Source: Lama guanicoe
Taxonomy: Eukaryota
Reading direction: 5' to 3'
DNA: 64,000 bases
Assembly: GCA_013239625.1 (NCBI GenBank)
Contig: MU053881.1
Coordinates: 14,500,373 to 14,564,372 of the forward strand
The stretch's first letter is position 1. The number at the start of each line of letters is the position of its first letter. The notes beneath the pieces are model-generated. The model saw only the letters and a program-made list of their open reading frames with translations, did not search any database and was not told the origin of the DNA. Shown piece after piece: positions 3,790 to 58,937 of the stretch. Position numbers and translations under genes: made by a program.

Positions 3790-4800
3790 CCCGGGGGTCA
3801 GGCAGGAAGGGCGCGAGCCGGGGGGAGGGCTGGCCCTGCAGGCGTGGGCGCGCGGGGACTCTTATTCTGACACGGGATCCGCAGCCGCCGTCGCCGTCGC
3901 CGCGGGGTTCAGCGCCGCGGCCCGGCCCGCCCGCGACCCCCGCCTCCCTCCCGGGACCCCCGCCCCGCGCGCCCACGTGCCGCCGCCCCCCCGNNNNNNN
4001 NNNNNNNNNNNNNNNNNNNNNNNNNNNNNNNNNNNNNNNNNNNNNNNNNNNNNNNNNNNNNNNNNNNNNNNNNNNNNNNNNNNNNNNNNNNNNNNNNNNN
4101 NNNNNNNNNNNNNNNNNNNNNNNNNNNNNNNNNNNNNNNNNNNNNNNNNNNNNNNNNNNNNNNNNNNNNNNNNNNNNNNNNNNNNNNNNNNNNNNNNNNN
4201 NNNNNNNNNNNNNNNNNNNNNNNNNNNNNNNNNNNNNNNNNNNNNNNNNNNNNNNNNNNNNNNNNNNNNNNNNNNNNNNNNNNNNNNNNNNNNNNNNNNN
4301 NNNNNNNNNNNNNNNNNNNNNNNNNNNNNNNNNNNNNNNNNNNNNNNNNNGGGGCCGCCCGGGCCCGCGGCGCTCGCTCCGCCGGTCCGCCCGCCCGCCC
4401 GCGCCGCCGGCCAGATAATGCGCCCCTCGGCCGCACACATGGAGCCCGGCGCCGGCGTCACCGCCCGGGACATGCGCACCAGGTCAGCGCGCCCGGCCCG
4501 CGGCCCCCAAAACACCGGGGAGCTCTTAAAGGCGACGCCGCCCGCCCGCGCCCGGCTGGGCGGGGCCAGGCGGTTGGAGGGCGGGGCCTGGTGATGTGGG
4601 CGGGGTCGTGTTGGCCGGCACCGCCCCGGAAGCACCGCCCCTCCTGATCGCGCCCCACTGGACGCCCGACCCCGTGCGTCGGTTTCCCACGCGGGCTCCG
4701 GCGGACTCCTAACGCAGGGCCAAGGGGTCGTCGCCAGCTCTCCCGCGGCAGAGCAGGGCGGGCCGCGCCCAGGGCTGACTCACGACGCGCTCACTACTGA
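3790..4800 (-). promoter_or_regulatory. GATAD2A: Second CpG island, likely an alternative GATAD2A promoter/first exon, interrupted by an assembly gap
   Basis: Very high GC/CpG, GC boxes, TATA-like TTTAAGAG on minus near 4525. Orientation and gene are inferred. Confidence 0.6.
3994..4350. other. Assembly gap (357 N)
   Basis: Run of N inside the GC-rich island. Confidence 1.
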
Positions 4801-7749: not shown

Positions 7750-8335
7750 TTAAAGTTTCTTATTTCACCCCAAATTCACACTCAGATGTTGAGATTACAA
7801 TGCAATTGGATGGGAAAGGAAAAGATTCATTTCTATATGAATTTTATTTCCTTAGTACTTTGATATTTTTGGTACTTTTTTTAGGATCAGGATATAGTTA
7901 AAGGGGCTATGTCTTATGAAAAATACAATACTCCCAACACTACGGCTGCTGCAACAAATGTCAATTTTTTTAATCACAACATTTTTACACTAGATTAGGA
8001 GTTTTGGGGGGACAGGTCAGCACCAGTTTGCCCCATCCCTGTCGTGTATGCAGAAAAGTTCTCTGAAACATAGCTCTCTAGAGATGAGCCACTTTGTCAA
8101 CATGTGTTTGTTTTGAGTATCTTTTCTAACCACGATTCTAAACACTTAGTGTCAACGCAACATGGAGTTCAGGCTCCATCTGCAGTTAGTCTCTGTGTAG
8201 CCATGATAACACACTATTACAGGGTTCTGAGCACAGATGCTTCCCTAAAGGGTTAAATACAGACTGCTCAGAAGTATCATTGTGAACCGGAAGTGTATCT
8301 CCCATTCTGTCTTCATCTGCATGTGTCACCAGTTG
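7750..8335 (+). repeat. Copy A of a ~590-bp inverted duplicated non-coding segment
   Basis: Reverse complement aligns colinearly with 26350-26950; 60/66 identities for 8124-8189 versus 26500-26565. Confidence 0.92.
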
Positions 8336-9859
8336 GCAAGGAATATCTCTTTTGTGTCTATACATGGCTTACAAAAAAAAAAATGCACACCTAATTTAGA
8401 TCAATTTTAAGTCTTTGAAAAGTTAGCAAGTGAACCATGTTTTCTATGAATTAAAGAATTAAAATGAAAAAAAAAATCAGAAAACCACCAGAAAAAAAAT
8501 GCTACATAACAGTCAAGTCTAAAGATCAACCTATTCAAACCTGCTTAGCAAAGAGTGTTAGTCACATCATCGGTCTGCTAATAAACATCCTTGGTTTAGA
8601 CATGAAGGAAAATATGTTTTAAAAACCTGGTATCCAATTCATACCACCCTCCCCAGTTATTAAATGGCAGATCTTCCAAACGACATAGGAAGGAGGAAAA
8701 CATTCCTCCCCAAAGTCTTCCTAATTAGAAGAGTACTCCCTCCTCTACTGGTGCCCAGTATTTCACTATAGAAAATACAGGAGGCGGGTCTTTCTAGTTT
8801 TCTCCTTTACAGCTTGATAACAGGCCTACAATTTTACCAACTCCTGGTTTGGGAGCAGTAAGATCTTTATTTCAAATCTAGGTCAAAAGTCAATCTTCAA
8901 TAGAGATACTTTAAGAGGTTAAATAAGAATTTGAAAGATTTATAAATATAAATACAAATATAAAACCTAAACCTTGAAAATGTCATGCAAGTTTAAAAAA
9001 AATCATTCTGCTGTGTTAAGAATTTCAGACCAGCTTAAATGACAATTCTCAAAGGAAAAAAATTCAGCAGCGCCCTTATCTGTTCTCTGGAAGTTCCTTA
9101 GGAGATTAAACTCCATGTTGACCGCATACAGAGTCTACATGGTCTGATTTCACTGGTCATCATTGGTTTCTGATTGAAAATGCTTATTCAGAGCTCAATT
9201 TAGATATTATTTTAATTTATTTGGGGGGACATTATTTTAATTTGAATTCAATTTTGAATCCTACTATGGCATATTTTATAAGACTCTCTACTTCTGAAGG
9301 TAACTTTGGGCTTTTCTTGCCAAAGGTGCTCAGTTCAAACTCTGACTTTTACATGAGCAAAACTCCTCAGATCAAGGGAACTCACCAGGCTGTTTTTCTC
9401 CTCTAGGTCCCTGACCGTGCCCATGCTGTTCCTCTTCTGAGAGTGCCTAGCCACCTAACAAGTAGCTCTCCCCACCGCCCTTTCCTTTGCAGGTTCTCCA
9501 AATAGTCCCTCCTTCCCCAATCCAACTGCAGCATTTTGCTGCACTTACCAGTTCATGAACCTGTCTTTTCCTGGTAGCATATGAGTTTCTGTGTCCAGCC
9601 AAGTGCCTGACCCTTGGCAAGTTAAATGAGTATTTGCCAGCAGTGGCAGTATAAGGCTACAATGAACTAAGGGAACATACTGAGAAAAATCAGCCAATCC
9701 AAGAACCTCTAGATCGTCCCTCAGTCATAAATAGCAGCCTGTGGCCCCAGTGCAGACCAATCTGCTCTTGGGCAGTATTAACTGCCATAGATAGCTATCC
9801 AAACTTGGGTGCCAACCTCAAGAGGGACAGTCAGCCTTGTTATGATTCTGTAACAACTA

Positions 9860-10020
9860 CCTTTACTAGGCACCTACAGCAATCCAGCCACTTGCCTGGT
9901 GTTTACCATCACCATCTCACAAATGAGGAAACTGAGGCTCAAAGAGGTTAGGCCACTTGCAGTTAGGCCACCTTCCTGGGGTCATTAAGCGAGCAAGTGG
10001 CGGAATCTGGCTCTCTGGCT
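9860..10020 (-). mobile_element. MIR fragment
   Basis: ACAAATGAGGAAACTGAGGCTCAAAGAGGTTA core. Confidence 0.65.
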
Positions 10021-12134
10021 CTTAAGTTTCTACTGCACACAGGGCCTCCCATGGTACTTTTACAAAGCAACAAAGACAAGAGCACACTCCTGCAGAAGGA
10101 CTTATCTACTGTCTGCTTCCTTAAATTCTATACACATCTCCAGAACAGCCCTCTGCAGGCATGCTCCTGCAGGGAACGTTGTGATAATACAATAGGAAAC
10201 CATCCCATTAACCACCCTGCCAGATAGTCCTGAATTTGTGCGTACATTAGCTGAGCCCCCAGAACTGCTAAGTGCAGGTCCACTGGTGGCTCCCAGCTCT
10301 GACGAAGAAGTTTACTGAGCAAAAAGTGAGAACCTGAATGAGCTGGAGCCCAACAACCCAGCCTGGAGGGCGGGGAACAGGAAGTGAAGAGAGAGCAAGC
10401 ATTTACTTCCCAAAGGCAGCAGAGCCCAGAGGTGGGAGCCTGGTCACGTGCACATTGCATTACTTGTCCACGCCCACTTCCGGCCTGGGCCTTCCTCTTC
10501 ACCTCAGGAGTCAGTACTTGGGTAGAAGGAAAGAAAAAGAAGAGACTGCCAGAAACTCTCCTTATAATATGCTCCCTCTCTCCTGGAGCCTGGGTCCTGA
10601 ATGAGTATCCACCCTTGCTCTCTGGCTCCAACCCTCACAAGTACACTTACTCACTTACTTAAGAAAAGCACCAGTCACACAATTCACCTATGTGGACTAA
10701 CATCAAATCTGGCCAAAACATAGGAAAGTCAATATAGCAGGTCCCCAGTCCCAGTACAAGAGGGAACACTTGAGCAGAGGAAACTCTGTGCAACTCTTTT
10801 TTTTTTTTTTAAGATTTCAAATAAGGCGGGAAGGGCTTTTAGAGCTGTTTATTTCTTTGCATAATATACACTGCCATGAAGAAATGCCACAGGATTCCAA
10901 AAACACACTGCCACCAACTTCAAGAAAAAGCAAAGCTGAAAATGCTCCTGGCAATAACCATTCCAGACTCTCTCTTATTTCTCCAAGACCACAGTCAGTC
11001 ATCCTGGATCAACTAGTGCCAACAGCCAACAATCAACCAGGAAAACACCATACTTTTTGCTTCCTTTCAGAGGGAGGAAACAGAAGAAAGGAACTCTAGA
11101 GAAGAAATTAGAAGAGTAATAAGGTTTCACTTCCAAACCTCCAAGAAACTCCACCCCAAGTTCCAAACATCCAGGGATATTCCCAAAGAAGTTCTGAGAT
11201 ATTCTTTCATTCATTTGTTTGTTTACTTGTCTGTCACTGGGATGTAAGCTCCCTGAGGGCTGACTGCCACTGTCCAGCTCTCTGCTAGGCCCCCAGCTGA
11301 GCATGTTGCGCCTGGTGCATCACTGGCACACGGACATTTATTGCTGAATTATTTGCTGGCACAGGAAGTTACATGAGCCAGAAGATTTAACATTTTCTAT
11401 TTTTCAATCCAATTTAAGTTGCATTAAAAAAAAACTATCTTATGGCCACACAGAAAAATCTGTGGTAAGTAAAGCCCTTACCTGAGTGTTCAAATGTCCC
11501 TTACAGGCCAGTTTGGAGGGATAGATTCATATTCAAAAGATGCATCAGTATAAATAAAGACAGCCGGGCTGCAAAGAGGATAAAGTCAAACTTAATACTA
11601 GGAATTGAAAATAACAACATCCGTTTATTTGGATGGAACAACTCCACAGAGTAGTTATTTCCCAATTCCAAAAGAGGTCAACTTCTTTCTTATCATCAAA
11701 ATCCCACAGGGATTTAATGCCCCGAGTGCTGTCTCCAACAGGAAGGAAACCCTGACTTCCCTAGCTATTTCAGTTATATAAATCAACAATTTATCGTCCC
11801 AAGTTAGAAGCTGGGCAGTGTTGGGACCCACATGCCTTTTAGAGCTGCCCACCAACGGATAACCACGTTACATTACATCTAATAAATGTACCTAGATCAA
11901 TATCATTTCTAACTATCCAAGGGTTTTTATTGCTGTAAGGATCTTTCAGTTCAAAAAAAAAAAGTTTAAAAAACTTCCTGTTAGATAAAAGAGACTCGGT
12001 GGTGGCGCCACCATCCACCAGAGTGAAGTCTGTGGTGCACAAGAGATACAGCATAATTTCAAAAGGGATAATAATCCCTTTAAAGTTGTTTACCTTACGT
12101 TTTATATTTTAAAAATAATAAACTGCTCCTTTCC

Positions 12135-12208
12135 TATACAATGGAATAAATGTCTTTAAAAGAATTAAGATTATACAATGGAATAAATGCCTTTAAACGA
12201 ATTAACAT
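12135..12208. repeat. Tandem duplication, 37-bp unit x2
   Basis: TATACAATGGAATAAATGTCTTTAAAAGAATTAAGAT / TATACAATGGAATAAATGCCTTTAAACGAATTAACAT. Confidence 0.9.
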
Positions 12209-12251
12209 TAATTTCAGATTGGCAGATACTTCTTGGGCTCAATAGTAAACT

Positions 12252-12256
<5 letters not shown>

Positions 12257-12300
<44 letters not shown>
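12257..12300. repeat. (TG)n(AG)n microsatellite
   Basis: Directly visible. Confidence 0.95.
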
Positions 12301-14899
12301 CGAGAGCGAAATATTTTAAGGGGTGGGGGAAAGATCTTTTCTTCAAACTTGGGAGTGGTGCAGTGAAAGCCTTAACAGATTTTTCACCCACTATTTCCCC
12401 CTACCTCCAAAGTGCTAGCTATCAGGGGCAAGTGCCATCTGTCCCCACATGAGTAAGTGAAAAGGGCTGGGCCCAACTCACCAGCCATGATGGGCTTTCA
12501 CTAATTGCTAAGAAAGAACCCTCTTACAAAAAAAGCAAAAAAAAGTGTCCTGCCCTCCCCAGCCCCCACCCCCAGAGGTTAAGTTAGCATCTTCACAGCT
12601 CTCTGGATCCTTGAGACCTCAAGGTAAATTCTGATTTCCTCATGGTCACTAAGCCACAAACTCAATGTACTGTTATTGTGTGGCAAAAAATGACTTTGTC
12701 CATCACTTTCCCAGTCTTTTATCCCCAAATCCGATCTGCTACCCTAAAAGAATGGTTCTTCTTTCAAGGTTCTAATGTGTAAGAAGAGATCACTCACCAG
12801 GTCATTGCTGCATATCACTCACTCAAGCAGTTCCAAAATATGGATATTTAGGTTTATGGTTCACTTTCTTTTTTCTTCCCACAATTCAAGTTCACTGTTA
12901 TCTTCTATTTTGCCTGTGGTCTAATTATAGTAATACATCTCCTTGGCCTTAACTCAGACATTACCCCATTTTATAGAGGGAGAAAGCAAGGCCAAAGCAA
13001 ACACAAACCCTTGCCACATAGCAAATCCATCTCACGTCTGCCATTCTGAACACAGAAAAATGTTACTAGACCCAGGTGGGCAGTGGGTTTTTCAAGAGAC
13101 ATATCAAATTTCTTTCTCTTTGCTCTTAGGGCATATCTAGCTTGGCAAAATGTCAAGTGCTTCCTGCTCTGGGAGTCCAGGCCAGAACCCTAATCTTCTG
13201 AGCACAACAATCAACCTTTACTGCACACCAACCATGTGCTAGGCACTGTGCTGGCCGCCTCCTGTTCATTATCTCAGATTCATTCATTCACACGTCTACG
13301 AAGCACTTCCCATCTGCAGGCGCCTTCACACACATTCATGGAAATGTGACCCCCTCAAGTATTTAGTAACATGACAATCTTGTGCTGTAACTTATCCAAG
13401 GCCACATGGCTAGGAAGAACAGACCCAGAAACTGAATCAGGTCCTTCTGACTTCAAAGATCCCCCTTCCCTAACACCCCACCACGATAGTCCTAATGGTT
13501 TCATTTCAAATCATAAATATGTGCCAGCACTTCTCTACCCTGTCACAAGACACCTTAAGCCCTGAGCTCCCCCACCATCTTTCCCCTTCCCCTCAGGGCA
13601 GTGCCTACAGCTGACCAGGAAGAGGCGGTAGAAGAGCAACCAGGTCTGAAGCAGCTTCCTGCCTGGACTTGACTACCCCAGGAGCAGAGGGCCCAGGAAA
13701 CTCTCCAAGCACTTCTCCACAGAAGAAAATAGCTCGAGTTGAAACTTGTGTCCACATGGTCCACCGACAGATTTAGAACTCAAATTATAGCCTCGGCAGG
13801 AGTCTTCACAAAGGACTCAAATTAAGCAAGACCCAGATGGAAATGAACAGGAGAGAGACAGCCTTAAGTCAAACTGTAAAGTGACCTGCAGTTCTAGCAG
13901 AGTCAGAGGGAGGAACTTGTTGAAACGCTAAACTAAACAGAAGTTTAGCCTCTATTTCAGAACTCCACTTCAGGAACATTCTCCCCACGTTTTTAGCCTG
14001 AGACTTGTATGTGGACACGAAGTGGTTACAAGTTACTCAGGTTTCAAACTGAGTTCATTCCTGTCCTTTGGACCATCTCTCAATGCCAGCATTCATCTAC
14101 TTGGGCTCCAGAGAGCTCTGCGTTTGGCAAAACAGATAAAATTAGCTACTGGAGTGAACTTGGAATCCAGGGTGGGCCATTAAAAAAAAGTACACATGAG
14201 ATTTGTAAAGGCCACGTAAAAACTTCCTTTGGGCCAGGCTGAAGTCATCTAAAACGTAGAGAAATGAATTCAAATCCCCTGATCCTTGCCTCCCTTCCAC
14301 CCTTCCTGGATCTAACGTGACCCATTTCCTGCTTCTTGCCCTGCCTTCCAAACCAGAGTGGCCCACAAACTGAGGATTCTCTAGAGATCAAGGGGTAAAT
14401 CAGAGGGCCTAGGGAGAGAAAACACAGCAGGAAAGCCTAAAGAAGTGTTTTTCTTCTCCTTTTTTTGGGGGGGTGGGAGTGTGGTGAGGGAAGTGAGTTA
14501 CACTAGGCAGAGGGAGAACTGAAGGATGGGACAGGAAGTGGGTCGGTCCCACAACTTGAAAGTGTGATAATGGGGGGACAATGCCCCAGCCCTGTCCCTC
14601 CCACCTCTACACTCGCCTGACAACACTGCAGTGGCTTCATGGCTCAAAAATGGAGTAACCAAGACCGTCATCTGGCAATAGCTCCTGCTCCCCTAAACCT
14701 AGCAGGTCTTAAATTGTAAGAGAAAACAGCGTTTTTTGCCTGTCTCCCAATTTTCCTTCCAGTCACACAATCCTCCAGGTCCCTGAAAGCTGAGGTAAAA
14801 GTTCAGAGAATATCCCTAATCTGGCATTCCAAGAAGACTGGGGTTGGGGGGCAGGGGGGCTTGCATATTTCTGATCCCTCCTTCCAGAATGGAGAGAAG

Positions 14900-16120
14900 T
14901 GGGTACCACAAACAGAAGTAGGGGAACCTTGAAGTTGGGGGCTCCAAGGAGAACTGAGGGAAGAGTTTCTTCCTTAAAGACTCAGAAGGGGAACCTCAGG
15001 AAAGGGGGAATGTCCTCAGACAAGTGGAAGAGGAACCCCCGGGAATGCAGGGGGTCCCTTCAAAGAAATGAAGAAATCTACCGTGTCTTCCATCAGAGAC
15101 GAGGTATCTTGGAACAGTGGAGGCACATTTCAGAGATGTGAGGAACCTAACAGGGAGTGGGACATCTCATATTAGGAAGAACCTCTGGAGATGTCAGGGA
15201 CCCCTCCAAACATTGTGGCATCACAGATTAGCAGGGGACCCCCCAAAACAAAAAAATTTTGGAAAGGTGGGAATGTTTCCTCAGACAAATAAGGATCCAA
15301 TTAGAAGTATGGGCATTTCAGAGTAGTGGGGGTGGGGGGCGCCTCAGGAAAATGGCGGTACTCATCAAAAAGTGGGTCTGGAGGAGAGAGTAACAGCTTA
15401 AGGGTAGAACGCGTCCTTAGCGTGCACAAGGTACTGGGTTCAATCCCCAGTATCTCCACTGAAAAAAAAAAATTAGGGGACCCCATCAAAAATGGGGACA
15501 ACTCAGAAAAGTGGGGAACATTTCCAAGAAGGATTCTGACAGAAGAGCACCTCAGATTAGTTGGGGGATACTTGGGGAAAGAAAGAGATCACCCAAAGAA
15601 GTTGAGACAGAAAAGCAGTGAGAGCATCGCAGAAAGGCAGGGGGGCAGGGGGGAACATCTGAAAAGTAGGGGGGACACCTTAAAAATGCAAGGGAGAAAA
15701 AGGAGCACAGAACAGTGGGACAACAGCTCAGAGAAGCAAAGATCTCCTCAGAGAGGTGGGGATCCCCCACAGAAGTGAGGGGGAGGGTCCCCTGGAAGCA
15801 GAGATGTCTCCTGAGAGAAGCGGGGGTCCCTCAGGGAAGCAGGGTATCCCCAGCGAGACGGGGTTCCCAGAAAGGCAGGGAGTCCCTCAGAGAACGCAAC
15901 CATTAGGAGAAGCAGGGGTCCTCTTAGAGAAGTTAGGAGGGGTAGTCTCAGAGAGGCGGGACTCTCGGGGAAGTGGTCCCTCAAAGAGATGGGGGGGTCC
16001 CTCAGGGAAGGGAAGCTCCTCTCAAAGAGGTGAGGTCCCTCAAAGAGAAGCGGGTTCCCTCAGACAAGAGGGTCCACGCACTGGAGACGGCCCCCTGGAA
16101 GAAGCGGAAGCCCCTGAGAA
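14900..16120. repeat. Degenerate purine-rich minisatellite (~20-nt GGGGTCCCTCAGAGAAGC-like units)
   Basis: Recurrent GGTCCCTCA / CTCAGAGA motifs, best preserved in 15740-16120. Confidence 0.7.
15383..15472 (+). mobile_element. tRNA-Ala-derived SINE (camelid Vic-1-like)
   Basis: Degenerate A box, B box GGTTCAATCCCC, poly-A tail. Confidence 0.8.
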
Positions 16121-17100
16121 GCCCAGGGCACCGGAAGCCGGGGACCCGCCACCGGCGGCGCCGGCCCCTCACTCACCGAAGTTGCTCAGTGCTTCTGCGG
16201 GTGGCTGCCGGGCCCCGGCCGGCCTCGGGTGGCGGGGTCTGGTCCAGTCCGCTCGGGTCCCGTGGGGGCAGCTCCCTCAGGTGGCGCCCGCGGCGGCGGC
16301 GGCGGCAGCGGCGACAGGACCACAGACGGTCGACGGATGGACTGCGCGGGCGACGCGGACCGCGTTCGGGCGGCGGGGGTGCGCGTGCGCGCGCCGGGGC
16401 GCTGACCCCGGGCGGGAGGAGCCGCTGCGCAGCGCTCGGAGCAGCCGCTCGGTCTCGCCGCACCGTCTCACACTGAAATTGCCCGCTTCGCAGCCCGGCT
16501 TCCCCGGTTGCTAGGCAGATTTCGTCTCGCACACTTCCGGGTTGAGACGCGTCTCACCGAGTGGCGGCGCCGCAGGCCAATGAGGTCCGGCAGGGGTTCC
16601 CGGGATCCGCGCCCCGGTGAGGGCGTGGCCAGGCTCATGACGGACATCACCCAGCGGCCAATGAGCGTACGTGCCGGCTAGCCCTCGGGATCGCGCCGGG
16701 GGCCTGGGCGGACCCAAGGAGGCGGGACGAGGTGACTGACGGGCGGAAGGCCAATGGAAGAGTGGGGCGGGCCTCAGGTCCAGTCAGGGCGCTGCGGGGG
16801 CGGGGCTTTAGGTTTGGGGCGGGAACACCTCAAGGGGCGGGGCCTACGGGACGCGTCAATCCGTGGTCGGCTAGCTCGGACACTGGAGGGGGGTTCCGCC
16901 GGGCTGCCCGGCGGCCGACAACTGGCTGGGCAGGGGGTTCCCCGCAGTGCTCAGCAGGGGCGCCCCACCCACAATGCACCGGAGGCTGTCTGGGCCGGGC
17001 GGGCGTGGGGCGGTTACGCCGGGAGGTGGGCGGGGCCGCATGAGGCGCGCTCTGAGGACACTGGGCGAGCTGTGGCCCGGCCTTGTTCCCGAGGGGTTTC
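16090..17100 (-). promoter_or_regulatory. GATAD2A: CpG-island promoter, likely the upstream GATAD2A promoter
   Basis: Dense CpG; CCAAT boxes at 16577, 16658 and 16751; many GGGCGG boxes; ETS ACTTCCGG; NRF1-like GCGCGTGCGC. Gene identity comes from synteny with MAU2/SUGP1 only. Confidence 0.75.
16177..16474 (-). other. GATAD2A: Probable non-coding first exon of GATAD2A (5' end approximate)
   Basis: Strong donor TTCG|GTGAGT at 16177/16176; Inr-like TCAGT near 16474; GC-rich leader. Confidence 0.6.
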
Positions 17101-20100
17101 GTTGCCTCTGGGCTCTTTTCTGTCTAGAGTCATGGGTTCTACTCTCTTCTGAGGAGAATCATGGGGATTCTTGCCCCCCGGCCTCCGTTCTGAGGAGAAC
17201 CTTCAAGAATCTTGCCTCTGGCCCCTTCTGAGAAGAGTTTTACTGATTCATGCCTGCGCTGCCCACTTTTCTGAAGAGAATTGCCAAGAACAGAATGATT
17301 TTGTAGATTCGGAACTTAAGCTCTCTGCTCAGAGAAAACTTGTCGGGATTCCGACCCCTGTCCCCTTTGCTAAGGAGAATTTGGGGAATTCAGGGCCCGC
17401 TGCCTTTCCTGGAAGAGTCTTTAGGGGAACATACCTCTTTTCTGAGCACTGGTGGGGGTCACTGGGCGGCTCCCTCCCCTGAGGGGCAGTAGGGGCTGCA
17501 TATCCCCGGCCTTCAGTTCTGAAGAAAACTTGGAAAATTCCTAACTTGTCCCTCCTCCGACCAGAGAAGAAATTTGGAACTTAAAGCACTCCTCTCTACA
17601 GAGAGGAATTGCAGGAGACTGATGGCCCCTCACCCTTTTTACTAAAGAATTGCCAGACAATTGTGCTCCCTGCGCTTTTTCTAAGCGTTAATTGAGTGTT
17701 GCAGGAGTTCCTCTTTTCCTAAGAACTGCAACCATTTGACTCCTCTGCCCTAGAAAAGTTACCCATTTAGACCTCCTTCCCTTTTTTTTTTAAGGATAAT
17801 TTTCCAACAGCTACCTACTCTTTCCCAAGGATCAAATCTGTGGCCCTTCCAAATTCTGTCTCCTGTCAGTCTTTTCACCCCCACCTTCCATCTCTGCTGA
17901 GTGTGGCCCTTCCAAGAAGCATTCTTGCTTCCCACCTACCCTAGACAAAACTAAACAGTCACTCCAGACTCTGCTGTAGTATGCACCATGGCCTACCAGG
18001 TGTCGGAGTCCTTCACTTCTGTCTTCCTCCAGCTGGTCTGTACTCCTCTCCTCTCCTCTCCTAATTTACCCCCAAAGAACCCAGTCATGCCCTTCATAGG
18101 CAAACATCCATTGAATCACAGGGGGAATGAATGCAGCGATGAGAAGGATCCACAACACTGAGGATTCAATATGGCAAACTTTTATTGCCCCTACTTTGTG
18201 CATAGAAGCATGGGATCGAACTTGTGAGCCAAGATGAACACAATAAAGGAAAATAGGCCTATTAGACAAGGCAGATTGTTGTAATACAGAGATACCAAGA
18301 ATATGTTGTAGGAATGTAGAGGAGGGAGTGATTAAATGAGATAATGGATGCAAAAGTGCTTTGTAAACCTTGAAGCAGTGTACCCGTGTAGAAAGGATTA
18401 TTGTTATTGTTACAAGTGGGCTGACATTCCTGGAAGAAAAGTAAAAAATAAATTCTATTTTGAGCATCAGAGTGATGGGAGGTTGGCAGAGAGCTGTGTG
18501 GTGCCTGACTCCCTGAATAAGCTCAGCCAGGACACAAGCGGCAAGGCTGAGTCCTTGGCTAGGGAAGGAAGCCACTGGAAACATGAAGACACCATGTTCC
18601 CAGAGTGCCTTGTTTGCATGTCTGTTGTAGCACTTATCACATTCCGCAAGTATCTAAGATGGTCTGGGTGGACAATAAACACTTGGACTTTAGTGACTAG
18701 CAGAACTGGGGTCAAACCCACGTCTGCCACTGCCTAGCTAGGCCAGTTACTTTCCTTAGCCATATCAGAAATGAGAACACCTGTCTCTAAAAGTTGCACT
18801 AAGAATTGTGAGCTCAAAGTTCCTTGAATGGTACCTGGTGCGTGCGCAGTAGGGCTCAAGAGCTTTTTGTTTCATTCCAGGCACTAATCAAGATACTTTC
18901 CGAGAGCAAGAATCCAGCCTTATCATTTAAATAATCCCTCGGTGCTTTTAGAGTTCTGAACTGAACCAGAATAAAAGAGCAGCTCATTGTCCAACCACTT
19001 CATTTTACACATGAGAAACTGAGAGGCCCCAGAGGGCAACTGTGACTTGTTCATATCCCACTACTACTTTATGGCTGGATCCTAAACTTGCATGGACTTA
19101 ATCTCACTTTGGGCCTATGTGTAGAAAGTTGAGAAGGAGGGAGCCCTGTGCCCTTGAGTCCTTGTGCAAAGCAGAGTCATGTAAGAACCCCAAATTCCCT
19201 GAGCCTTATCTCTCTCTTAAGTAAGCTGTGAGAAGGTTCTAGACACAGCTCTAATAGAGTCCCCAAACTCAAGAGAAAAGGGCAAGTGGGGGCACTGACC
19301 AGGGTCAAGACCACCTAAATTAACTTTATCAAAGGGAAATTGCAAATGAAGTGAGGTTATTTCAGAACTACTCTATGTAATTTCCAGATCATTCCCTGGA
19401 AATGTCAGGACCTATAATTACATCTCACCTTTTTATTTTAAGAATGTACAGAATTTCTCAGATTCTCTGAAAAAAGGCATTGCCTGGAGGCAGAGATGTT
19501 GGATTAAGGGATGTCCCTGAAGTCTGGAATCCTAAGCATAAACAAGAGTCCCATTTGGCTGGAAAATTGTATCCTCAAAGAATCAAAGGCAAATGGGCAT
19601 TCGTCAGAGAGAGAGAAATGCCCCACCAAAATGGATGACATGAGCACAGCTTCTGACATAAAAAAGAAAAGAAAAGAAAAGCATGTGACCCATACCAAGG
19701 ATGGGCTTTCCTTTCCATGGTGGTAGCAGCGATTGTATCTCTCAGCATCAAGGCGTGTCCCTTCCTGGGTCTGGGAAATCATGTGGGCAAACTGGCTAAG
19801 TGACATTCACATCCAAATAGGGAAATGGGAACTGAGCCAGGTGAATGCACAGGCGGCAAGAAGGCAGGGCCTCAGTGGTAGTTAGAAAAATGAGGACTTG
19901 GTGGGTGCCAGCCTGCAGAGATCTTCTCTTGGTGTTGTGGCCTTGGACAAGGAGGAGTGCCCACTAACAAAGAAGAACAACAGCTGGTTGATACCAGTAG
20001 GAAGGGTAATAAGTGCAGATATTAAAGCCCTCTAGTGTCACTCAATGACAGTAGCCACTCAAGTACACACAATAAAGCACTGTGAGGTTCACATATGTGA

Positions 20101-22161
20101 ACTGAGCGTAGCTTTAGTGGTACTGGTTGACTAGACAATCTAGTATTGAGTCCAGTTGGAATTCAGGCATCCTTTCACTTTTTTTTTTTTAAATAGATCT
20201 TTAGGTCAAAAACCTGGACTCTAGTAACAGATCTTACCTGGTTCTTTGACACAATTAAGTGGAATTAGTGATAACCCTTTTCTGAGGCAAAAAAAAAAAA
20301 AAAGTAGTGTATACCTACATGCCTGCAGCCTAGAAGATCTCTAAGTCAAAATGGTGACTTCCCCATCTAGGAAGAAAAGCATTTCTGATAGGAGAGACTT
20401 CATCTTAGACACGTGTGGCCACTATATGCAGAAAGGAGAAGTCGAATGGAGACTCACTGTTGCCCGTGGAGAATTCACCATGAGATTCTGTTGGATCTGA
20501 AGGCTTTTAGCATTCCAAACACGCACTTACATCTGAGCCTGAAACCCAGGTCAGGGCTTTAATCCTGCTGCATTTCACACCCTTTCCTCAACCTTTCTGT
20601 GCCTTTCTGTGCCTTTCTGTGCCCAGAGACTGAAGTGATTCCAAGTGGCATGTGTATCATGCCTGTGGTTGGAGCCCATTGCTTTCGTTCCCTCACCATT
20701 CTCTCCTCTTGTCAGGCTGGAGTCTAATCCTACCACTAAAATCTCTCTCAAGTTACTGAGAACTTCATGATCCCCCTTCTAGGAACTCTTCTTGGTGTGC
20801 ATTTTCTCCAACCTGCAGCATCTAAAAGATACTCCCTCCTCCGTTGCAATGTCTTTCATTGGCTCTTGGGGAACTTGACTCTTCTGGTCTCCTGTTCAGT
20901 CTCCATGCAACTTCTACCTGGAAATTCTTCCAGGCTGTTCATCTCTTGCAACTCTTTGCCCTCTCTGTTTCTTCAGAGAATAAGTCCCTTGGTGGAGTGG
21001 GACTCTATTAAGAACTCCCAGATCTGTATTCCCATTCTGCCCAAGTTCCTGTCTAGGGTGTCCTTTGCCTGCAGATAGTACCATGAAGATGTGACTCAAA
21101 CCCAACCAAATATCACACCAAGGTTGGTATCTCTCTCTTTGACCCATCTCCCATTCTTTAAACTACCTGGCCTTTGTCATTCTCTTTTCTGCACCAGTGC
21201 CACTTTCCCAGTGTTCTAGACAGAAAGCACTTAAATCTTTAGAAGTTTTTTAACGTCACTCTCCAAGCTCAAACTTAGTTGCTAAATGTTGTGAGGTGTC
21301 CCCTCACTTTTCTATCTACTCTTTTCAATTTCTTGTTACCACCCATACCTGGACTATTATGTGCAAACTATCAGACATGTACCACTCCTACTCAAAAAAC
21401 TTTGATTTTTAGGGAGGCTATATTGTGTTGCTTTTGTAATCAGAAAGAAAAAAAATTAACTAGATAAAGGCTGAATCTTGGCTTGCCATTTGAAGCCCTC
21501 TCGTTGCCCCTCCCTTCACTACAGTTTCTTCCTGGGATGCTTCCTTCAGGAATGATACCTTACGCTGATTACTGCAAAATTTCCCACACTGAATTCCACC
21601 GGACATCAGAATGATTCAAGATATCAGTAGTGATTCTGTAATGAATTTCCCTTTAAAAAAATTTTTTCAACCTGAAGATTTCACTAAATTGTTAATATTA
21701 AGAATACACATTGTTATGGTATATTCCAACCCCTCTTGAGCACATGCTGTTTCCTTTTTCTAAGAACACCCATTAATATCCTGACGAACTCATATTTGGT
21801 AGAACATGGTTCATGGCTTGAATGGGGCTGGTTCGGCTCAGCACGTTGCCCTTGTCTAAGCCAGCTTCTTCCTCCCTTACTGCATCGCCCTCTCTCAGTA
21901 GTTGTGTGAGGTCAAGGTACATTGCTCTGTTTTGGTGGGGAGATGATTGAGGCTCAGGGTTTTTTATTCAGCTAGAGTCACCAATAAATAAAACCAGAAC
22001 CTAGGTCTGAATTCCAATTCTGAACAAAATCTCAGACTCCCGTAGAGCCTTTGGACCAGCTAGGGCTACGAGCATGTTGGTAAGTAACATTTTCTGTTTG
22101 TAATCCTCGTTTTTGTGCATTTTGTATTAAGTGACCACACAACGTGGGTACGCTGGCTTGC

Positions 22162-22182
22162 CTTTCTTTCTTTTTTCCTTCC

Positions 22183-22225
<43 letters not shown>

Positions 22226-22259
22226 CTCTCTCTCTCTCTCTTTTTCTCTTTCTTTCTCT
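22162..22259. repeat. (TTTC)n/(TC)n pyrimidine microsatellite
   Basis: Directly visible. Confidence 0.95.
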
Positions 22260-24342
22260 ACTAGATAACACATTCTCAGAGGATAGAACTATGTTCTTCA
22301 ACGCACACATAGTAGACAAATACATTTAATATATACACGGCAGACTACGTTTAAACAATAAATGCCTGGATCACCTGCCTTTTCTGAATGCCTGCTCATT
22401 TCTCCCCCTTGGGTCCCCTCTTCTTGTACATAATACAATGTTAAGGACTGTCAGACCCAGAGGAAGTGCAGAAATCAGCTAGTCCATCTTCAACATTTCC
22501 CAGATGAGGAGCATGCAAAGAGCTTATGACTTGAGCAAGCTCAACAGCAAGGCGAGAGCCAAGCCGGTCTCTTGGCAGAGCCAGCCTGAATCTCAAAGAC
22601 CACAGACACTCACTGCACCTTCGTGGTTGTTAAACTCCAGTGGCAGAACAGGCGGCGTCCTGTCTGCTGTCTTAAGTGGAATTCAGGAGTCCCCAGGGAG
22701 CTCTGGGCAGTCATGGGCCGCGCCCCGTGGGTCACTTGTGTGCCTTTGTGCGGGAAATTTCCTTGTCACTGCCCAGTTGCTTCCTGCCTCCATATTAAGG
22801 CCTCCAGACCAATCTGCGGGGAAGCAGCCATCAGGGCTCGCTGCCTTTGGCTTCCACCCAGACCAGGCCAGGCTCTTCCTGCTGCTGCTCGGCCTCTAAC
22901 ACATCTGCTCACCGAGGCCCTGGCCCTCTTTATGAGAATTTTCTCCTGGATTGTTGCCGAAACATAGACAAGAGATCTGGAAGAGGGAGACATTCCCCCA
23001 GACGTATAGAAATGTGCCAGTCATCCCAGATTCTCTCCTCTTCCTCCCCTGCAGGCGGTCGTGGGGCTGGCACTGGGCTGGTAGCAGGGTGAGTGCTGGG
23101 AATGGAATGCAAGAGGATACCGAGTGTCTCCATCTTATTTTGTTCCTTTGGACCAGGAACCTTTCAAATGTTCCCTCACTCATTGCTATGTTTATTTATT
23201 ACACAAGTATTTAATGGGGTAAAGTGGTGGGCAAAGGTGCCAGGGATGAGGCACAGCTCTCTCACATTGACCCTTAGGTCTGCTGTCTCCTCACCCACAA
23301 GCAACCACTGTCACCAGTCTCTTACATGTCCCACCAAAGAGGTTCTACACCATTCACAGATGTACCAGGTGCGCTTTGATTTTATACACACAGAGTCATG
23401 GTGTGCACATTCTGATTTTTTAAACTGAAAGCAAGAATTCTGGGGGGTAATGTTTCTCACCACGGAGACAAGTTGCCACTCTCAATCAGTGACCCAGAAC
23501 TGTACTTTGGGGTTAGGTTCCAGCTTCTAAAATGTTCCTGAGAACCTGTACCCTTAGCCCAACATTGCTGTTCAGTATAGAAAACCCTAGAAGGCCTTGC
23601 TTCGGGGCCTGCTGAGGATGGGAAAAGGTCCTTGGATCCTCGGAGCAGTGGTATTTCTACACATCGCAACTTTTGCTTAGATCTAAGGACTAACTACCCT
23701 TTACTAGTGCAGGAGTCATTAGTCCCCCCCCCCCACCCCCGGTCTGGAAACCTTCACTCCTGCTCCAAATGATGCTGAGAGCCAGGAGCTTTCAGCTTAA
23801 GGGGAGACGGGGCTTATGGCAAGAATTTCGGTGCAGAGGCCCAGGTTCCCCGTTGGAGCTGTCAGAGGCCTATGGTCATGGTGAGAGATCTGGGTGCCGT
23901 GGAAGTACAGTGGGGAGAGACAGACTGACAACAAAGTGAACAAGGTGATTTCAACTACTCATGATGATAAGAAAGAAAAGTAATCTGGGGTGTGACACAG
24001 TGACACAGGCAGGGCACAGCAGGTGGATTTGAGGAGACACCTGAATCTTAACAAAGACTCAGCCTGGGGATGACCATTCTGGGTTGAGGGGAACAGTGAG
24101 TGCCACAGAAGGCACCGAGCAAGGGGCAGGGAGCAGCTGGCAAGCTGGTGGGCATGGATGAGGTGGGAGAGGTCGGCTGAGATTGTGGGTCTGGGAGGAA
24201 GCAGGATTTTATTCTAATAGGAAGAAGTAAGCATGCTACAAGCTCTGTTTCCCCTTGGCAAAACTCCTTGTTCGGACTCGGTAATCCTCCAGCTCTCTGG
24301 TTTCATGCCTGTGTTCTTTTATTCAAAGATGTTATTGAGCCT

Positions 24343-24435
24343 CCAGGGTGGCCAGATTTTACAAATGAAAACACAGGACACCCAGTTAGCTTTGAATATC
24401 AGATCAATGACAAATACTCCTGTAGTATAAGTTTA
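24343..24435 (+). mobile_element. MER53-like hAT DNA transposon fragment
   Basis: CAGGGTGGCCAGATTTTACAAATGAAAACACAGGACACCCAGTTA resembles the MER53 terminus as I recall it. Confidence 0.6.
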
Positions 24436-26305
24436 CCCTAGAGTGTTAGAGTATCTTCCAAGAGCCAGGCCCCTGCTAGAAGTCAGCCCAGGTTTCAGTA
24501 ATTCACTTCATACAACCCTACAACCTAGCACCTTCAGAGGAACTGGTTAGACATGAAGGTCAGAGTCTGGTGTGGCTTGGGAAAGAGATTAATTGGCTTA
24601 AAAAAATCTACCTTGGTCCCAAATTGTGACCTTGAACTGGTGATTCCTTTGGGTGCCCCAACGCTTGTCAGATGCCTACATGGCATTGATCAAAATGCCT
24701 TCGGTGCCCCTTGCATCACAAACATGTATCCTGTTGTGTGGGGAGGTTTCTTGGGTGGCCAGATATAGGTTCTGGCCTTTTTCATGAGAACTATGAGGAG
24801 AGGGGAGCATGCTTAGCACTCACCCATCACTCTCGCCAAGGGTGTGGCTGTGAGTAATGAGGAGGTGAAGTTTTGAAGGTTGGAAGAATCCAGAGAGAGA
24901 TGATGTGGCCATGGGCTCCTCATCTTATCTTGGGGACTGTCTCTGTGCTGCCATGGGGTCTGTCTCTGTGCAAAGCCCACCTGGCCCTGTACCCTGCAGA
25001 CAAGGTACAAGGGTGTCCCACAACCAGGGCAACCCCGGGCATGACCTGTGGCTATTCCAGAACACAGCCAGGGAGGGGCAAATAATCCCTGAAAAATAAT
25101 CTCCTTAAGTCAAAGTTTTAGGTCTCAGGAAAACTAGATGCTAAGAGAGAAACAGATCCTATGAAAGAGGGATTTGGGTGTGGCCCTGCTGGGACTTCCT
25201 TCTGTTGATGCCAGAAGACAGAGGAATTTTCTGGAGGCAGGAAGAACTTCTTGGAGAGATGAGGTCCCTTTTCTTGGGGAGGGGGTGTCTCCAGAAACAG
25301 CACGGTGGCCACTGGGCAGGGTGTTAGGGGTACGGTACTCATTTTGGGGACCCAGCTCTGAGGCATCTACTGTGGTTAGTTCCTGGTAGTGTCAGGGGCG
25401 CTCTGGCTATTGGTCACCTACTGTTGGAGTCCATGTTATACATGGGGGTTAGTGACCTCATCTCTGTCACTGTCACCCTCTGACCCACACCCCTGCCTCA
25501 GATTCAGCCATATCTGTACCACCTCCACCCTTGAGATGGGTTCCAGGATGTGGGCCTAAGTTTAGAGGGGAGAAGAACCTGAGGGGACCCAGGGATTCGA
25601 ACCCTCCCCTGGACAAGGGGCCTCAGTCACTTTGCCTATATCGATCAATGTCCTCTTGGACATGACCCAGGCATCAGCTATGTTTGAGATGGCAGCGGGC
25701 ACGGGCGGCAGCCCCTGCCCTCTGGAATGCCACAGGCAGTACCGATGCACACCCAGCATCTTATCTGGACTGGCCAGACTTGAGGGCTGGCCGATTCCCT
25801 CCCCATGGTCTTGGTGGCTGTGTAGCAGAAGCTGGAAATATCATCCAGCTCCCACTGGTTTGGCTGAGCGAGGTCTCCCCTCTGTCCTGTCACAGAGCCC
25901 CCAACCTGTCTCCTGGTTGTTCCATCCTACAGTGTGCTACTCCTCTCTCACAGGCAGACCAGCACTTGCTCATCTGTGGTCCATCATAGAGCTCCCTATA
26001 GAATGTCCACTCCCTGAGGGCAGGGACTTTGTATGGTGTGCTTCCTGCTGTGTCCCCAGCACCCAGCACCCAGTAGGTGCCAAATAAATGTTTGGCGAGT
26101 AAATGAGGGAATGGTGTAGGCCTGACACTTGGAGAAACACAGAGATCAGCATGTTACAGGAGGGGAACTGAGAGGCCTTGAGGTAAAGGTCAGTCCACAT
26201 CCTTGCAGATGAGGACAGAGCCAGGCTACATTGGAGTCTGGCAACATCCAGCCCAGCCTTCCCAGCCTGCTTGTCCTGCCAAGTGGGGACACTGCCCAGG
26301 GTGCC

Positions 26306-26322
26306 CACGCCCCCTGGTGGCT
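26306..26322 (-). promoter_or_regulatory. Candidate CTCF site
   Basis: Minus strand GCCACCAGGGGGCGTG matches the CTCF core CCASYAGRKGGCR. Confidence 0.6.
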
Positions 26323-26349
26323 GAAGATGGAGGGGCCGGGCCAGCAGCC

Positions 26350-26950
26350 GCAGCTGGTGACACATGTAGATGACAGAGTGGTAGATACACTTCCGGTTCA
26401 CGACGTTACTTCTGAGCGGTTTGTACTTAACCCTTTGAACCCTGTAGTAGTGGGACATCCTTCAGGGCCACACAGACCTTTGCTCTGGACAGAGCAAGCC
26501 TAACTGCAGATGGAGCCTGAACTCCAAGTTGCATAGACACTAGATGTTCAGAATCGTGGTTAGAAGTGACACTCAAAGCTAAACAAACACGCTGACAAAG
26601 TGGACCATCTCTAGGGATCTGTTTCAGAGAGCTTTTCTGTATACAGATAGGAATGGGACAAACAAATGCTGATCTGTCTTCCACAAACTCCTAATTTAGT
26701 GTAAGAATGTCGTGATCTTAAAAATTAACATTTGTTGTCACAGCTCTAATGCATTGGGGTTATTGTATTTTTCATAAAGCATCACTGCAATAGTCCCTTT
26801 ATTTTTGAGTCTTTGCAAAACAAGTATCAAAAATATCAAAGTACCAAGAAAATAAACTTCACATAGAAATGAATCTTTTCATCTTTTCCCAACCAATCGC
26901 AGTGTAATCTCATCACTTGAGTATGAATTTGTGGTGAGATAAACTTTTAA
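26350..26950 (-). repeat. Copy B of the ~590-bp inverted duplicated segment
   Basis: Shares CTAACTGCAGATGGAGCCTGAACTCCA, AGAATCGTGGTTAGAA, ATAGAAATGAATCTTTTC and AGATACACTTCCGGTTCAC with the reverse complement of copy A. Confidence 0.92.
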
Positions 26951-28194
26951 CTTGTCAGCAATCCCTCCTCCCCTCCCCAACCCTCTGGGAATGAGCAACA
27001 ACCCTTCCTAGAGCGTTGGGGAGGGGGCCCCCATGGCCCTCAGGGTCTAACTCCCTCGCCCACCCAGCCTCCGCCCATTGTCCCCAGTGCGGTAGGGGCC
27101 CCGCCTTACTCTGACCCCAGCAGGGGTTAGTCTCCAGTTGGCAGCTCTGAGCTGACTGGGATTGTACTGGGGGAAGAAGATGGCGTGGTTCAAATCAAGG
27201 AAGATGTTAAGTGCTGGACACACTGGAACATGGTAGGACTCTCCCTAAATAGCTTTCTTTGTGGGGAAATGTAAATCCAAAGAGCTCAAGGAGGCCAAGG
27301 AGGGAAACCAATACACATCAGGAATATTTTAAACTCCCAGGTCCCCATCAGCTTGGGGGGTAAGGTCAGAATTCCCTGCAGGATGGCAGGGACTTGTTGG
27401 TATTTCTGGGGGGGAGGGGACCGAGCCACAGTGACTGGGCATGCTGACACCTGCAGTCATTGTGGGCGGGTGTTCACGATGGCATCTGCTGAACCTGTCT
27501 GGAGTTGGGCCATGCACACTTTCATCTGGGCTGCCCTATGGACCCACCCACTATGTGGTAGGCCCGGACCAGGACATTCCCCAGTGTTACCCAGTAGCCA
27601 CAGGGAGAGTGCCCCTGGCAGGGGGACAGCTGGGAATGACCACAGAACATTCTGAGACCATTCAGGGAGGAGGCTGGGCAGCATTTAGATGGGAGACATG
27701 ACTGGGGCTCAGACAGATGGCAAAACGGCTAGGAATGGGCAGAGTGACCTGCAGGATATCTGAGGATTGGGGCTGTGTGTCTAAGACGAGTAGTGACCCC
27801 TTCCCCAGCCATTTGATGCTCAGGCCAGCTGCCCTGGCCACCTGCTATCCTCTGTGAAGCCTGTTCCTGTCCTTCCCTCAGCCCTGTGGACACTTCTTGG
27901 CTGAGTTCCTGTCACCCGCTTTCCAAGTGTGTTTTGCAGACCCCAAGAGCTTCTGTGCACCATGTCACTATGCTGGGGATCATTTCAGTCAGGGCTGTGT
28001 CAAATCACTCTCACATCCAGTGGCCCGCAGTTCTGACCTGGGACCCTGGCCCAAAGGAGTCCTCTGATGTGCCCCTGGAAGGGAGCAGTCAAGGTCACCT
28101 GGACGTCATCTTGGGGCACAGGAACAAGAGCAACATGAGGCTTTTGATGCAACATGGGCAGCAGCCTGGCACCATCCATGCATGTTAATAGCAG

Positions 28195-29084: not shown

Positions 29085-29135
29085 GACAGCACAACAAAGA
29101 CACCGTGAGTGATGGCTCCTGCAAGTTATTTTACT
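29085..29135 (-). terminator. MAU2: Probable MAU2 distal polyadenylation site: AGTAAA variant hexamer plus downstream GU-rich element
   Basis: Minus strand reads AGAGTAAAATAAC...CCATCACTCACGGTGTCTTTGTTGTGCTGTC; the AT-rich UTR-like sequence ends here. A canonical AATAAA is at 29679-29684. Confidence 0.55.
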
Positions 29136-31942: not shown

Positions 31943-32017
31943 TCACAGGAGGCTGGCCAGGCTGGTGTTGGGTCCATTCTGAGCTTGGAACTGCACAGGG
32001 GGCGGGCCGTCTGTCCA
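31943..32017 (-). CDS. MAU2: MAU2 exon 19 coding part (WTDGPPPVQFQAQNGPNTSLASLL*)
   Basis: CTGCAG|TGG...CTG TGA; 75 nt including stop. Confidence 0.96.
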   Translation of the reverse strand, partial: WTDGPPPVQFQAQNGPNTSLASLL

Positions 32018-32383
32018 CTGCAGGAGGGAGAGGACACACAGGTGAGGTCCTTCCTAGAGAGGAGCAGGGGTACGCTGGGCTGCATGTCTGCACCTGGAAT
32101 GCTGCCCTCCTTGGGCTGGTCACCAGCCAGGGCCCTCTGTCTTCCACACTCAAGTCAGATGGGCCCCCAGGAAGCAGCCTGCATCATGTGGTGCCATTTT
32201 GCCCATCCAAGGGGGCTCCTGAGGCCAGGCTAAGTTAGAAATTGTTGGAGAGATGCAAGGAGATGGTCGCCAAGTGTGTACTTCCCACCTCAGCAGCGTG
32301 CCCCCCAGGCTATAGGCCAGGTGAGCTAGCCCCGAGGAGCCAACCAGCACCCCCATTTCATATCCCTCACCCCATGCCCATAC

Positions 32384-47283: not shown

Positions 47284-47432
47284 GGGGGAGGATACAGCTC
47301 AGTGGTAGAGTGAGTGCCTAGCAGGCATGAGGTCCTGGCTTCAATCCCCAGTACCTCCATTAAAAATAAATAAATAAACCTAATTACCCCCCCCAAAACA
47401 TAAAAAAAACTTTGAAAACTTAAAAAAAAAAA
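47284..47432 (+). mobile_element. tRNA-Ala-derived SINE (Vic-1-like), MAU2 intron 3
   Basis: GGGGAGGATACAGCTCAGTGGTAGAG...TTCAATCCCCAGTACCTCC, A-rich tail, partial TSD CTCCCCAT on both sides. Confidence 0.85.
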
Positions 47433-57168: not shown

Positions 57169-57247
57169 AAACAAAGAAGTTGATCAAGCAAGGACTAAAG
57201 AGTTGATCAAGCAAGGACTAAACAAAGAAGTTGATCAAGCAAGGACT
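57169..57247. repeat. Three copies of AGTTGATCAAGCAAGGACT
   Basis: 57178-57196, 57201-57219 and 57229-57247. Confidence 0.92.
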
Positions 57248-58903: not shown

Positions 58904-58937
58904 ATGAGTCTCAAGATGGACAACCGGGATGTTGCAG
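58904..58937 (+). CDS. SUGP1: SUGP1 coding exon 1 (MSLKMDNRDVA-G)
   Basis: ATGAGTCTCAAGATGGACAACCGGGATGTTGCAG|GTAAC; recognised SUGP1/SF4 N-terminus. Confidence 0.93.

Follow-up and report, generated by a model that had tools for sequence, protein, structure and literature searches.

The window analyzed here, a stretch of 64,000 nucleotides of Lama guanicoe DNA, holds two copies of a non-coding segment with a CpG-island promoter between them. The CpG observed/expected ratio was 0.73-1.27 over 16,100-17,099, and a splice donor at 16176, read by eye, points toward the gene body. The gene is presumably GATAD2A, a name that we take from gene order, and no GATAD2A coding exon was identified in the window. 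Copy A sits in the intron that separates this upstream CpG-island exon from a second CpG island of the presumed GATAD2A gene on the minus strand, and copy B is intergenic, about 2.2-2.7 kb past the likely poly(A) signals of MAU2. One MAU2 exon, other than the last, gave a Pfam Cohesin_load match (E 9.9e-6; 24.6 bits, just under the cut-off of 25.8), and a search of solved structures with this exon returned no match. The features are as follows.

7760..8335, plus strand: copy A, probable donor (blastn; GC content relative to flanks)
8163..8189, plus strand: perfect 27-bp run, partner at 26500-26526 on the minus strand (permutation p 0.42)
8282..8300, plus strand: 19-bp identical run with an ETS/GABPA-type consensus, in copy A (alignment)
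16100..17100, minus strand: promoter in a CpG island, with the first exon, in the interval between the copies; donor site at 16176 by eye; CpG observed/expected 0.73-1.27
26351..26942, minus strand: copy B, probable insert, intergenic (blastn; GC steps at both junctions)
26383..26401, minus strand: copy B counterpart of the 19-bp ETS-type run (alignment)
26970..27026, no strand: inverted repeat whose 22-bp arms (91% complementary) enclose a 13-base loop, lying 28 bp beyond the copy B junction
29130..32020, minus strand: MAU2 last exon and 3' untranslated region; stop codon at 31943-31945, 3' end by eye

A preliminary description of this DNA had reported a segment of about 590 bp duplicated in inverted orientation about 18 kb apart and had proposed a dot-plot-type self-comparison. 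Self-blastn of the window recovered the pair as the top of five self-matches, copy A at 7760-8335 (+) aligning with copy B at 26942-26351 (-) over 619 columns (E 3e-114; 74.5% identity with gaps). The copies, 576 bp (A) and 592 bp (B) long and on opposite strands, are separated today by 18,015 bp. In a global alignment, 461 of 544 gap-free columns (84.7%) were identical, with 54 transitions and 29 transversions, corresponding to a K2P distance of 0.173 (bootstrap 0.136-0.213). The indels had been called small; there were 13, of 1-21 bp, and the term does not suit the two that measure 19 and 21 bp. No homology was found beyond the copy ends in the 2-kb flanks of either copy, and a two-copy profile search found no third copy in the window. 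An assembly artefact was excluded: there is a 15% difference between the copies, and of the 24 listed runs, from five organism codes, 14 contained 0.92-1.00 of the words sampled from 25800-27500, four of these 14 runs being flagged as a possible source. The duplication is far beyond chance; the sub-features picked out within it are not.

The identical positions showed no clustering along the alignment, neither in the variance between windows (p 0.78) nor in how many runs they form (p 0.36). The block of 60/66 identical positions with its perfect 27-mer, pointed out previously, is present, but neither part holds as a mark of selection: the best 66-column block had a permutation p of 0.81, and a run of 27 is expected under even divergence (p 0.42). 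Two identical runs of at least 19 bp were seen for 2.6 expected, and at this divergence any one 10-mer has a 15% chance of remaining identical. The ETS site and the shared 10-mer were both found in the two copies, as described. The former lies in the 19-bp run, whose 9-mer consensus we take to be of ETS/GABPA type; in copy B, a single contig of a relative spans this run, with zero listed differences inside. As for the claim that the midpoint of the pair falls at the edge of the CpG island, the midpoint (17,343-17,351) does lie only about 250 bp outside it, but one as near arises 28% of the time by chance.

Base composition differed between the two sites. Copy B has a GC content of 0.397, compared with 0.570 and 0.557 in its flanks (p 4e-11), with steps at both junctions, while copy A (0.389) is close to its flanks (0.373 and 0.347; p 0.25); the substitutions showed no GC drift between the copies (36 versus 34). 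Because B stands out as AT-rich within GC-rich surroundings, whereas A matches its own, B is probably the insert and the direction of copying was probably from A to B.

The earlier remark that the copies carry no terminal inverted repeats, LTR ends, or poly-A was borne out. No target-site duplication was present, the longest direct repeats of 6 and 5 bp being usual values in 2000 random placements and the 5 bp at the B ends falling below the null median. No terminal inverted repeat exceeded 6 bp, a second check at the ends found none either, and no A or T run occurred at either B junction. A Pfam search of 18 of the 40 stop-to-stop frames, the longer ones being chosen, gave no match at the cut-off and one far below it (E 0.069). 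Rfam gave none at the cut-off, and the 2 and 12 weak matches obtained at relaxed thresholds were all far below it. In the predicted single-copy fold, 2 of 130 pairs covary, and 4 of the 13 indels are multiples of three. Among the contig pieces listed for four of the 24 runs, two of them whole-genome and two RNA, none on copy B was non-local, a comparison whose positive control failed: the DNA runs yielded no contigs of the locus, a copy-A contig appeared in none of the four runs, and records were filtered unannounced. The same four runs listed pieces of 34-51 bp at about 80-90% identity on a neighbouring repeat relic, and B-bearing contigs did appear in the RNA runs. A third copy as near to B as A is would share an exact run of at least 21 bp 87% of the time. 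Exact-pattern scans for orthologues or further copies present as host contamination in metagenome (six loci), prokaryote-genome (one), and two viral sets (one and zero) returned eight loci, all of 19-25 bases and attributable to chance; these scans have little power, and absence is not to be read from them. A Polinton-like giant transposon with 590-bp terminal repeats was rejected because a CpG-island promoter of the host lies in the interior and the eye finds no duplication at the flanks.

The divergence of copy B was then compared with that of its surroundings. In a comparison with a relative about 1.6% diverged, copy B showed 7 differences in 445 positions, and 29 were counted in 1855 positions of its flanks (Fisher p 1.0). 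If B had slowed to 30% of the flank rate, this would have been noticed (rejected, p 0.006), but a 50% slow-down was not rejected (p 0.064), in a test that counts seven events on low-depth RNA contigs and leaves out 147 of the 592 bases, including the 27-mer. Neither RNA run covers 26448-26594, but four other such holes exist and this one was not used. At the seven positions where B differs, copy A agreed with the window at three, with the relative at two, and with neither at two, and thus gave no signal of gene conversion. Of six repeat comparisons, the four in correct orientation were used. Compared with two SINE pairs in the window, the two copies were similar both in K2P distance (0.173 against 0.18 and 0.26) and in indels per 100 columns (2.4 against 2.5 and 2.2), while two pairs of L1-like relics lay above them (0.25 and 0.35; 5.5 and 6.2 indels). 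If neutral, the duplicate would be about as old as the tRNA-derived SINE pairs of the window. These tests lack the power to see constraint confined to a few short motifs or to copy A. Since B changes at the pace of its surroundings, an accident is likelier than a preserved pair of gene switches. The proposal of twin enhancers kept by selection was not supported, given the even identity, an indel density like that of the SINE pairs, the flank-like rate of B, and the unremarkable symmetry, and that of an old local inverted duplication, with one intronic and one intergenic copy and no recognisable transposon, was supported as far as it could be tested.

We consider it probable that the pair arose as a one-off local inverted duplication, through an ordinary accident of replication or repair, and that copy B has been drifting since. 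The homology, the orientation, the sharp ends, the lack of a tail or terminal repeats, the compositional mismatch of B, and its flank-like divergence are all consistent with this reading, which covers only B as not kept; A may or may not be regulatory. During break repair or replication at the B site, synthesis would have switched to, or captured, the A sequence, reproduced some 590 bp of it in reverse orientation, and then returned, leaving an inverted insert without marks of retrotransposition. The insert would have been fixed in an ancestor of the species compared and have drifted thereafter. The inverted repeat next to B, at 26970-27026, is a candidate fork-stalling site. Folded as DNA, it had a z-score of -3.34, and it was the strongest of 180 windows tiled over 19-46 kb, although it was chosen post hoc. 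We infer that a template switch, perhaps favored by this hairpin, produced the copy. Fork stalling can be caused by hairpins, which also occur together with template switches (PMC7954356), and the switches described there in great apes likewise involve reverse-complement copying and secondary structure near the switch point, but they stay inside a single fork and cover tens to hundreds of bases rather than 18 kb. No empty ancestral site and no outgroup was seen, which weighs against a copying accident.

Among the sequenced inversion sites of the 1000 Genomes phase 3 data, 54% of 229 were inverted duplications of less than 1 kb that were not linked to retrotransposition, the most frequent class there (PMC4617611). 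The present pair resembles these in being shorter than 1 kb, inverted, near its source, and without retrotransposition marks, B showing neither tail nor target duplication, although such marks could have decayed. It differs in lying 18 kb and not at most 5 kb from its source, although the original distance may have been different, and in being fixed and 15% diverged instead of polymorphic, with junction microhomology unreadable. Given the gap of 18,015 bp, it would work like this class without being filed as a typical member. Nearly all the human cases lie within 5 kb (PMC4617611), so that the spacing of the copies speaks against a copying accident. Class 2 templated insertions (PMC5110952) are also templated patches without target-site duplication or poly(A) and fit break repair, but their donors are distant compared with 18 kb here, and junction marks are unreadable at this divergence. 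The duplication and tail marks of class 1 insertions (PMC5110952), as of L1-mediated copies, are absent here.

Several other explanations were considered. That the copies, of the same origin, are both ETS/GABPA-driven enhancers of the promoter between them, with selection on the short motifs only, is unlikely: the shared 10-mer and the long runs survive as often as chance allows, identity is not clustered, and the CpG asymmetry described below is not significant. If a low-copy interspersed repeat had inserted twice independently, or a third locus had supplied both copies, with the inverted orientation arising by chance, this would explain why both copies end at the same points, and old families can lose obvious ends, a possibility left more room by the failed copy-number control. 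A single copying event gives shared ends equally well, however, and terminal repeats, target duplications, a tail, any Rfam family at cut-off, and any Pfam domain at cut-off in the 18 frames searched are lacking. A further copy should usually have left a long exact run, yet nothing non-local was listed on B from the four runs, and A blends with its flanks; we regard this explanation as quite unlikely. Improbable too is a lineage-specific shadow-enhancer pair, cleanly dated and traceable in sequence, in which an intron-1 GABPA/ETS enhancer of a dosage-sensitive chromatin gene was template-switched across its own promoter with both copies active; the same low probability takes in an alternative form, a pair older than the mammal split that would be an overlooked conserved pair at a locus associated with human disease. 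In humans, the GATAD2A locus has been linked to the risk of breast cancer and of schizophrenia (PMC7492262). Shadow enhancers born by duplication (PMC13345019; paralogous enhancers in PMC11291912) are likewise two homologous non-coding segments near one promoter with non-homologous flanks, and 31.5% of mouse hit pairs also lack flank homology (PMC13345019). Those enhancers are defined by marks and shared targets, whereas the present pair is known by sequence, and its copy B shows no whole-length constraint.

Two further explanations concern the interval between the copies. When an inversion starts from staggered breaks, both breakpoints end up with an inverted duplicate, a geometry that fits the position of the two copies at either end of the 18-kb interval. 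Such an inversion would have turned the promoter round, but the splice donor of the first exon inside the interval, by eye, faces the gene body. The model also predicts one native and one foreign side for each copy, whereas B has foreign DNA and A native-looking DNA on both sides, making this explanation very improbable. It is scarcely credible that the pair forms an RNA duplex on MAU2 read-through transcripts running into GATAD2A intron 1. RNA-library contigs do give patchy cover of B together with its flanks (24 and 19 bins out of 30), and the predicted pairing of A with B amounts to about -670 kcal/mol. This cover is not specific to B, may include DNA, and is not proof that B is expressed. 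No sign of an 18-kb transcript crossing the promoter was seen, and a normal GATAD2A transcript contains A only. A selected duplex should not, moreover, decay evenly with 13 indels and so few covarying pairs.

None of three shared 16-mers, in either orientation, was found in the main text of published papers, and literature listings on the locus and on the duplication class contained no description of this pair. Passages of PMC11438911, PMC7492262, PMC13405209, PMC10637723, and PMC8605555 held nothing mappable to either copy. A one-off copying accident would make the pair one more case, now fixed and decayed, of a mutation class that is common, and it would matter little; it would have some small value as a fossil showing that inverted copies of less than a kilobase can lie 18 kb from where they were copied, and perhaps as a lineage marker. 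If both copies were active enhancers, they would offer a tidy case of shadow-enhancer birth by duplication, useful but not surprising, as such birth is reported to be common (33.9% of mouse sets; PMC13345019).

Finally, the ETS-type 9-mer occurs four times in the window for 0.39 expected, always between 8.3 and 26.4 kb, and B keeps CpG more than A does: a CpG is retained in B with its decay product in A at five sites, and the reverse at one (two-sided p about 0.2, not significant). Both the 9-mer excess and this CpG retention speak against a copying accident.

The strongest self-match of the window joined 7760-8335 (+), hereafter copy A, to 26942-26351 (-), copy B, over 619 columns (74.5% identity with gaps, E 3e-114). 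This self-comparison bore out the inverted pair of the preliminary description, and the 27-mer, the 60/66 block, the 19-bp ETS-type run and the shared 10-mer that it listed were all found at the positions it gave. At gap-free sites, 461 of 544 were identical (84.7%), and the copies differed by 54 transitions, 29 transversions and 13 indels of 1-21 bp, four of which kept the frame. Homology ended abruptly, with no match between the 2-kb flanks, and a profile made from both copies found no third copy in the window. B was also present in public read assemblies (14 of the 24 listed runs, five organism codes, 0.92-1.00 of the words of 25800-27500), four of these 14 runs being a possible source of the window DNA itself. 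The observation of the pair stands.

MAU2 is located on the minus strand, where one exon matches Pfam Cohesin_load (E 9.9e-6). Its stop codon is at 31943-31945 and likely poly(A) signals were seen by eye near 29,680 and 29,130, and B therefore lies 2.2-2.7 kb beyond the end of the gene. RNA-library contigs gave patchy cover of 25400-28100, past this end; two loose contig ends in one run (26773 and 28034) start with the same 13 letters, presumably a template-switch adapter and, if so, these molecules would be minus-strand RNA, consistent with MAU2 read-through. The regions 58270-59050 and 60671-60841 presumably hold the MAU2 first exon and a head-to-head neighbor in a common CpG island, which we take to be SUGP1. 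A CpG island at 16,100-17,100 contains an exon with a splice donor directed to lower coordinates, and A lies within the intron separating this island from a second one at about 3.8-4.8 kb, in which a run of 357 N (3994-4350) leaves the downstream promoter only partly assembled. We take this gene to be GATAD2A, from the known gene order and from papers on 19p13.11; no coding exon of GATAD2A was identified in the window. Two such papers place both MAU2 and GATAD2A at 19p13.11 (PMC11438911, PMC7492262).

The GC content of B (0.397) is foreign to its flanks (0.570 and 0.557; p 4e-11) and shifts abruptly at each junction, whereas that of A (0.389) resembles its own (0.373 and 0.347; p 0.25); for this reason, B is likely the insert. 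Neither a target-site duplication nor a terminal repeat or tail was found at the ends of B. An inverted repeat with 22-bp arms (26970-27026) lies 28 bp outside one B junction, and its predicted hairpin (z -3.34), noticed post hoc, was the strongest among 180 windows tiled over 19-46 kb. Hairpins can stall forks and accompany template switches (PMC7954356); that by the B junction may have stalled a fork or favored a template switch. As minus-strand RNA, the same hairpin is predicted to form a stem-loop of 60 bases (z -2.77), the size of a microRNA precursor, with weak matches to Rfam microRNA models, far under the cut-off. A relative about 1.6% diverged, the source of RNA-library contigs, differs at 26998 and 27001, in the loop, with unchanged arms (one contig).

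The K2P distance between A and B was 0.173 (bootstrap 0.136-0.213) which, with 2.4 indels per 100 columns, matches two SINE pairs of the window (0.18 and 0.26; 2.5 and 2.2) and falls below two L1-like relic pairs (0.25 and 0.35; 5.5 and 6.2), the SINE and L1-like names being presumptive.

Copies of the tRNA-derived SINE used as a local clock (self-match and Rfam tRNA matches)
15380-15473, first copy
47285-47407, second copy
63802-63924, third copy

These SINEs look camelid. If neutral, the duplication would be about as old as the window SINEs. Counted in substitutions, it would lie about 11 times as far back as the split from the relative, which on typical branch lengths would fall approximately on the camelid stem. 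Such an age, if neutral, predicts that human and mouse carry A only.

The preliminary description had raised twin enhancers kept by selection as a possibility, a reading that we consider unlikely. The 27-mer and the 60/66 block fail as signs of selection: in 20,000 permutations of matches and mismatches, the longest run averaged 26.5 (p 0.42 for 27) and the best 66-column block 60.6 (p 0.81 for 60/66). Window variance (p 0.78) and number of runs (p 0.36) were likewise ordinary by permutation, two identical runs of at least 19 were observed for 2.6 expected, and a given 10-mer would be identical in both copies 15% of the time at this divergence. The midpoint near the CpG island is no special symmetry, as B placed at random in the upstream gap brings it within 300 bp of the island in 28% of cases. 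Compared with the relative, B showed 7 differences in 445 covered bases and its flanks, taken as neutral, 29 in 1855 (Fisher p 1.0), this test concerning B rather than A and the cover coming from low-depth contigs of two RNA-library runs that reach 445 of 592 bases and miss the 27-mer. A slow-down of B to 30% of the flank rate was rejected (p 0.006), and one to 50% was not (p 0.064). With even A/B identity and B diverging like its flanks, the evidence at hand does not support a preserved pair of twin enhancers.

On the side of function, an ETS-type 9-mer occurs four times in the window (8287, 10475, 16532 and 26388, all around the promoter) against 0.39 expected, although two of the four are the A/B pair itself, the motif was chosen post hoc and the shuffle ignores CpG islands. 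At five sites B keeps a CpG where A has the decay product, with one reverse case and two CpGs common to both; the imbalance is not significant and gene-body methylation fits too. The sequence data leave room for A as a putative regulatory element, and less for B having retained a regulatory site. Separately, the third ETS-type consensus outside the promoter (10475-10483), some 25 bp from a sequence that by eye resembles an E-box, marks a candidate intronic enhancer at 10440-10490, unrelated to the duplication.

A dispersed repeat family was considered by aligning contigs of two whole-genome and two RNA runs on 25400-28100 at 80% likeness. Non-local pieces of 34-51 bp were listed on a relic at 26009-26091, with one on 27197-27236, and none on B among the matches listed; yet the control failed, with A in no run and own-locus contigs absent from the DNA runs. 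A third copy no more diverged from B than A is was computed to share an exact run of at least 21 with B 87% of the time, and in the A/B alignment 96 windows of 48 gap-free columns reach 80% identity or more, so that a young, abundant family should have appeared. The contig result makes a repeat family less likely. Searches of the pair turned up neither an Rfam family nor, in the 18 of 40 stop-to-stop frames covered, a Pfam domain above cut-off, and no covarying structure emerged. A may also belong to a much older repeat and have been copied locally to give B.

A one-off local inverted duplication with B drifting is, in our assessment, the probable explanation. In the 1000 Genomes map, inverted duplications account for 54% of the 229 inversion sites that were sequenced; these are nearly all under 1 kb and at most 5 kb from the other copy, and are not typically linked to retrotransposition (PMC4617611). 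This is the nearest known class, and the A/B pair works like its members, but its copies do not lie within 5 kb of each other; we therefore class the pair as a local inverted dispersed duplication rather than a typical member. The other analogue is the class 2 templated insertion, with distant donors (PMC5110952). The pair adds one case to a known kind of mutation, and was not described in the titles and abstract openings searched.

Two further features lie farther along the window. A long fragment at 54180-56460 in a MAU2 intron, by eye presumably L1-like, is broken at about 55230-55410 by a short insert of another kind, which we take to be a small DNA-transposon relic, and three imperfect tandem copies of about 22-34 bases each form, by eye, a short array at 57170-57247.
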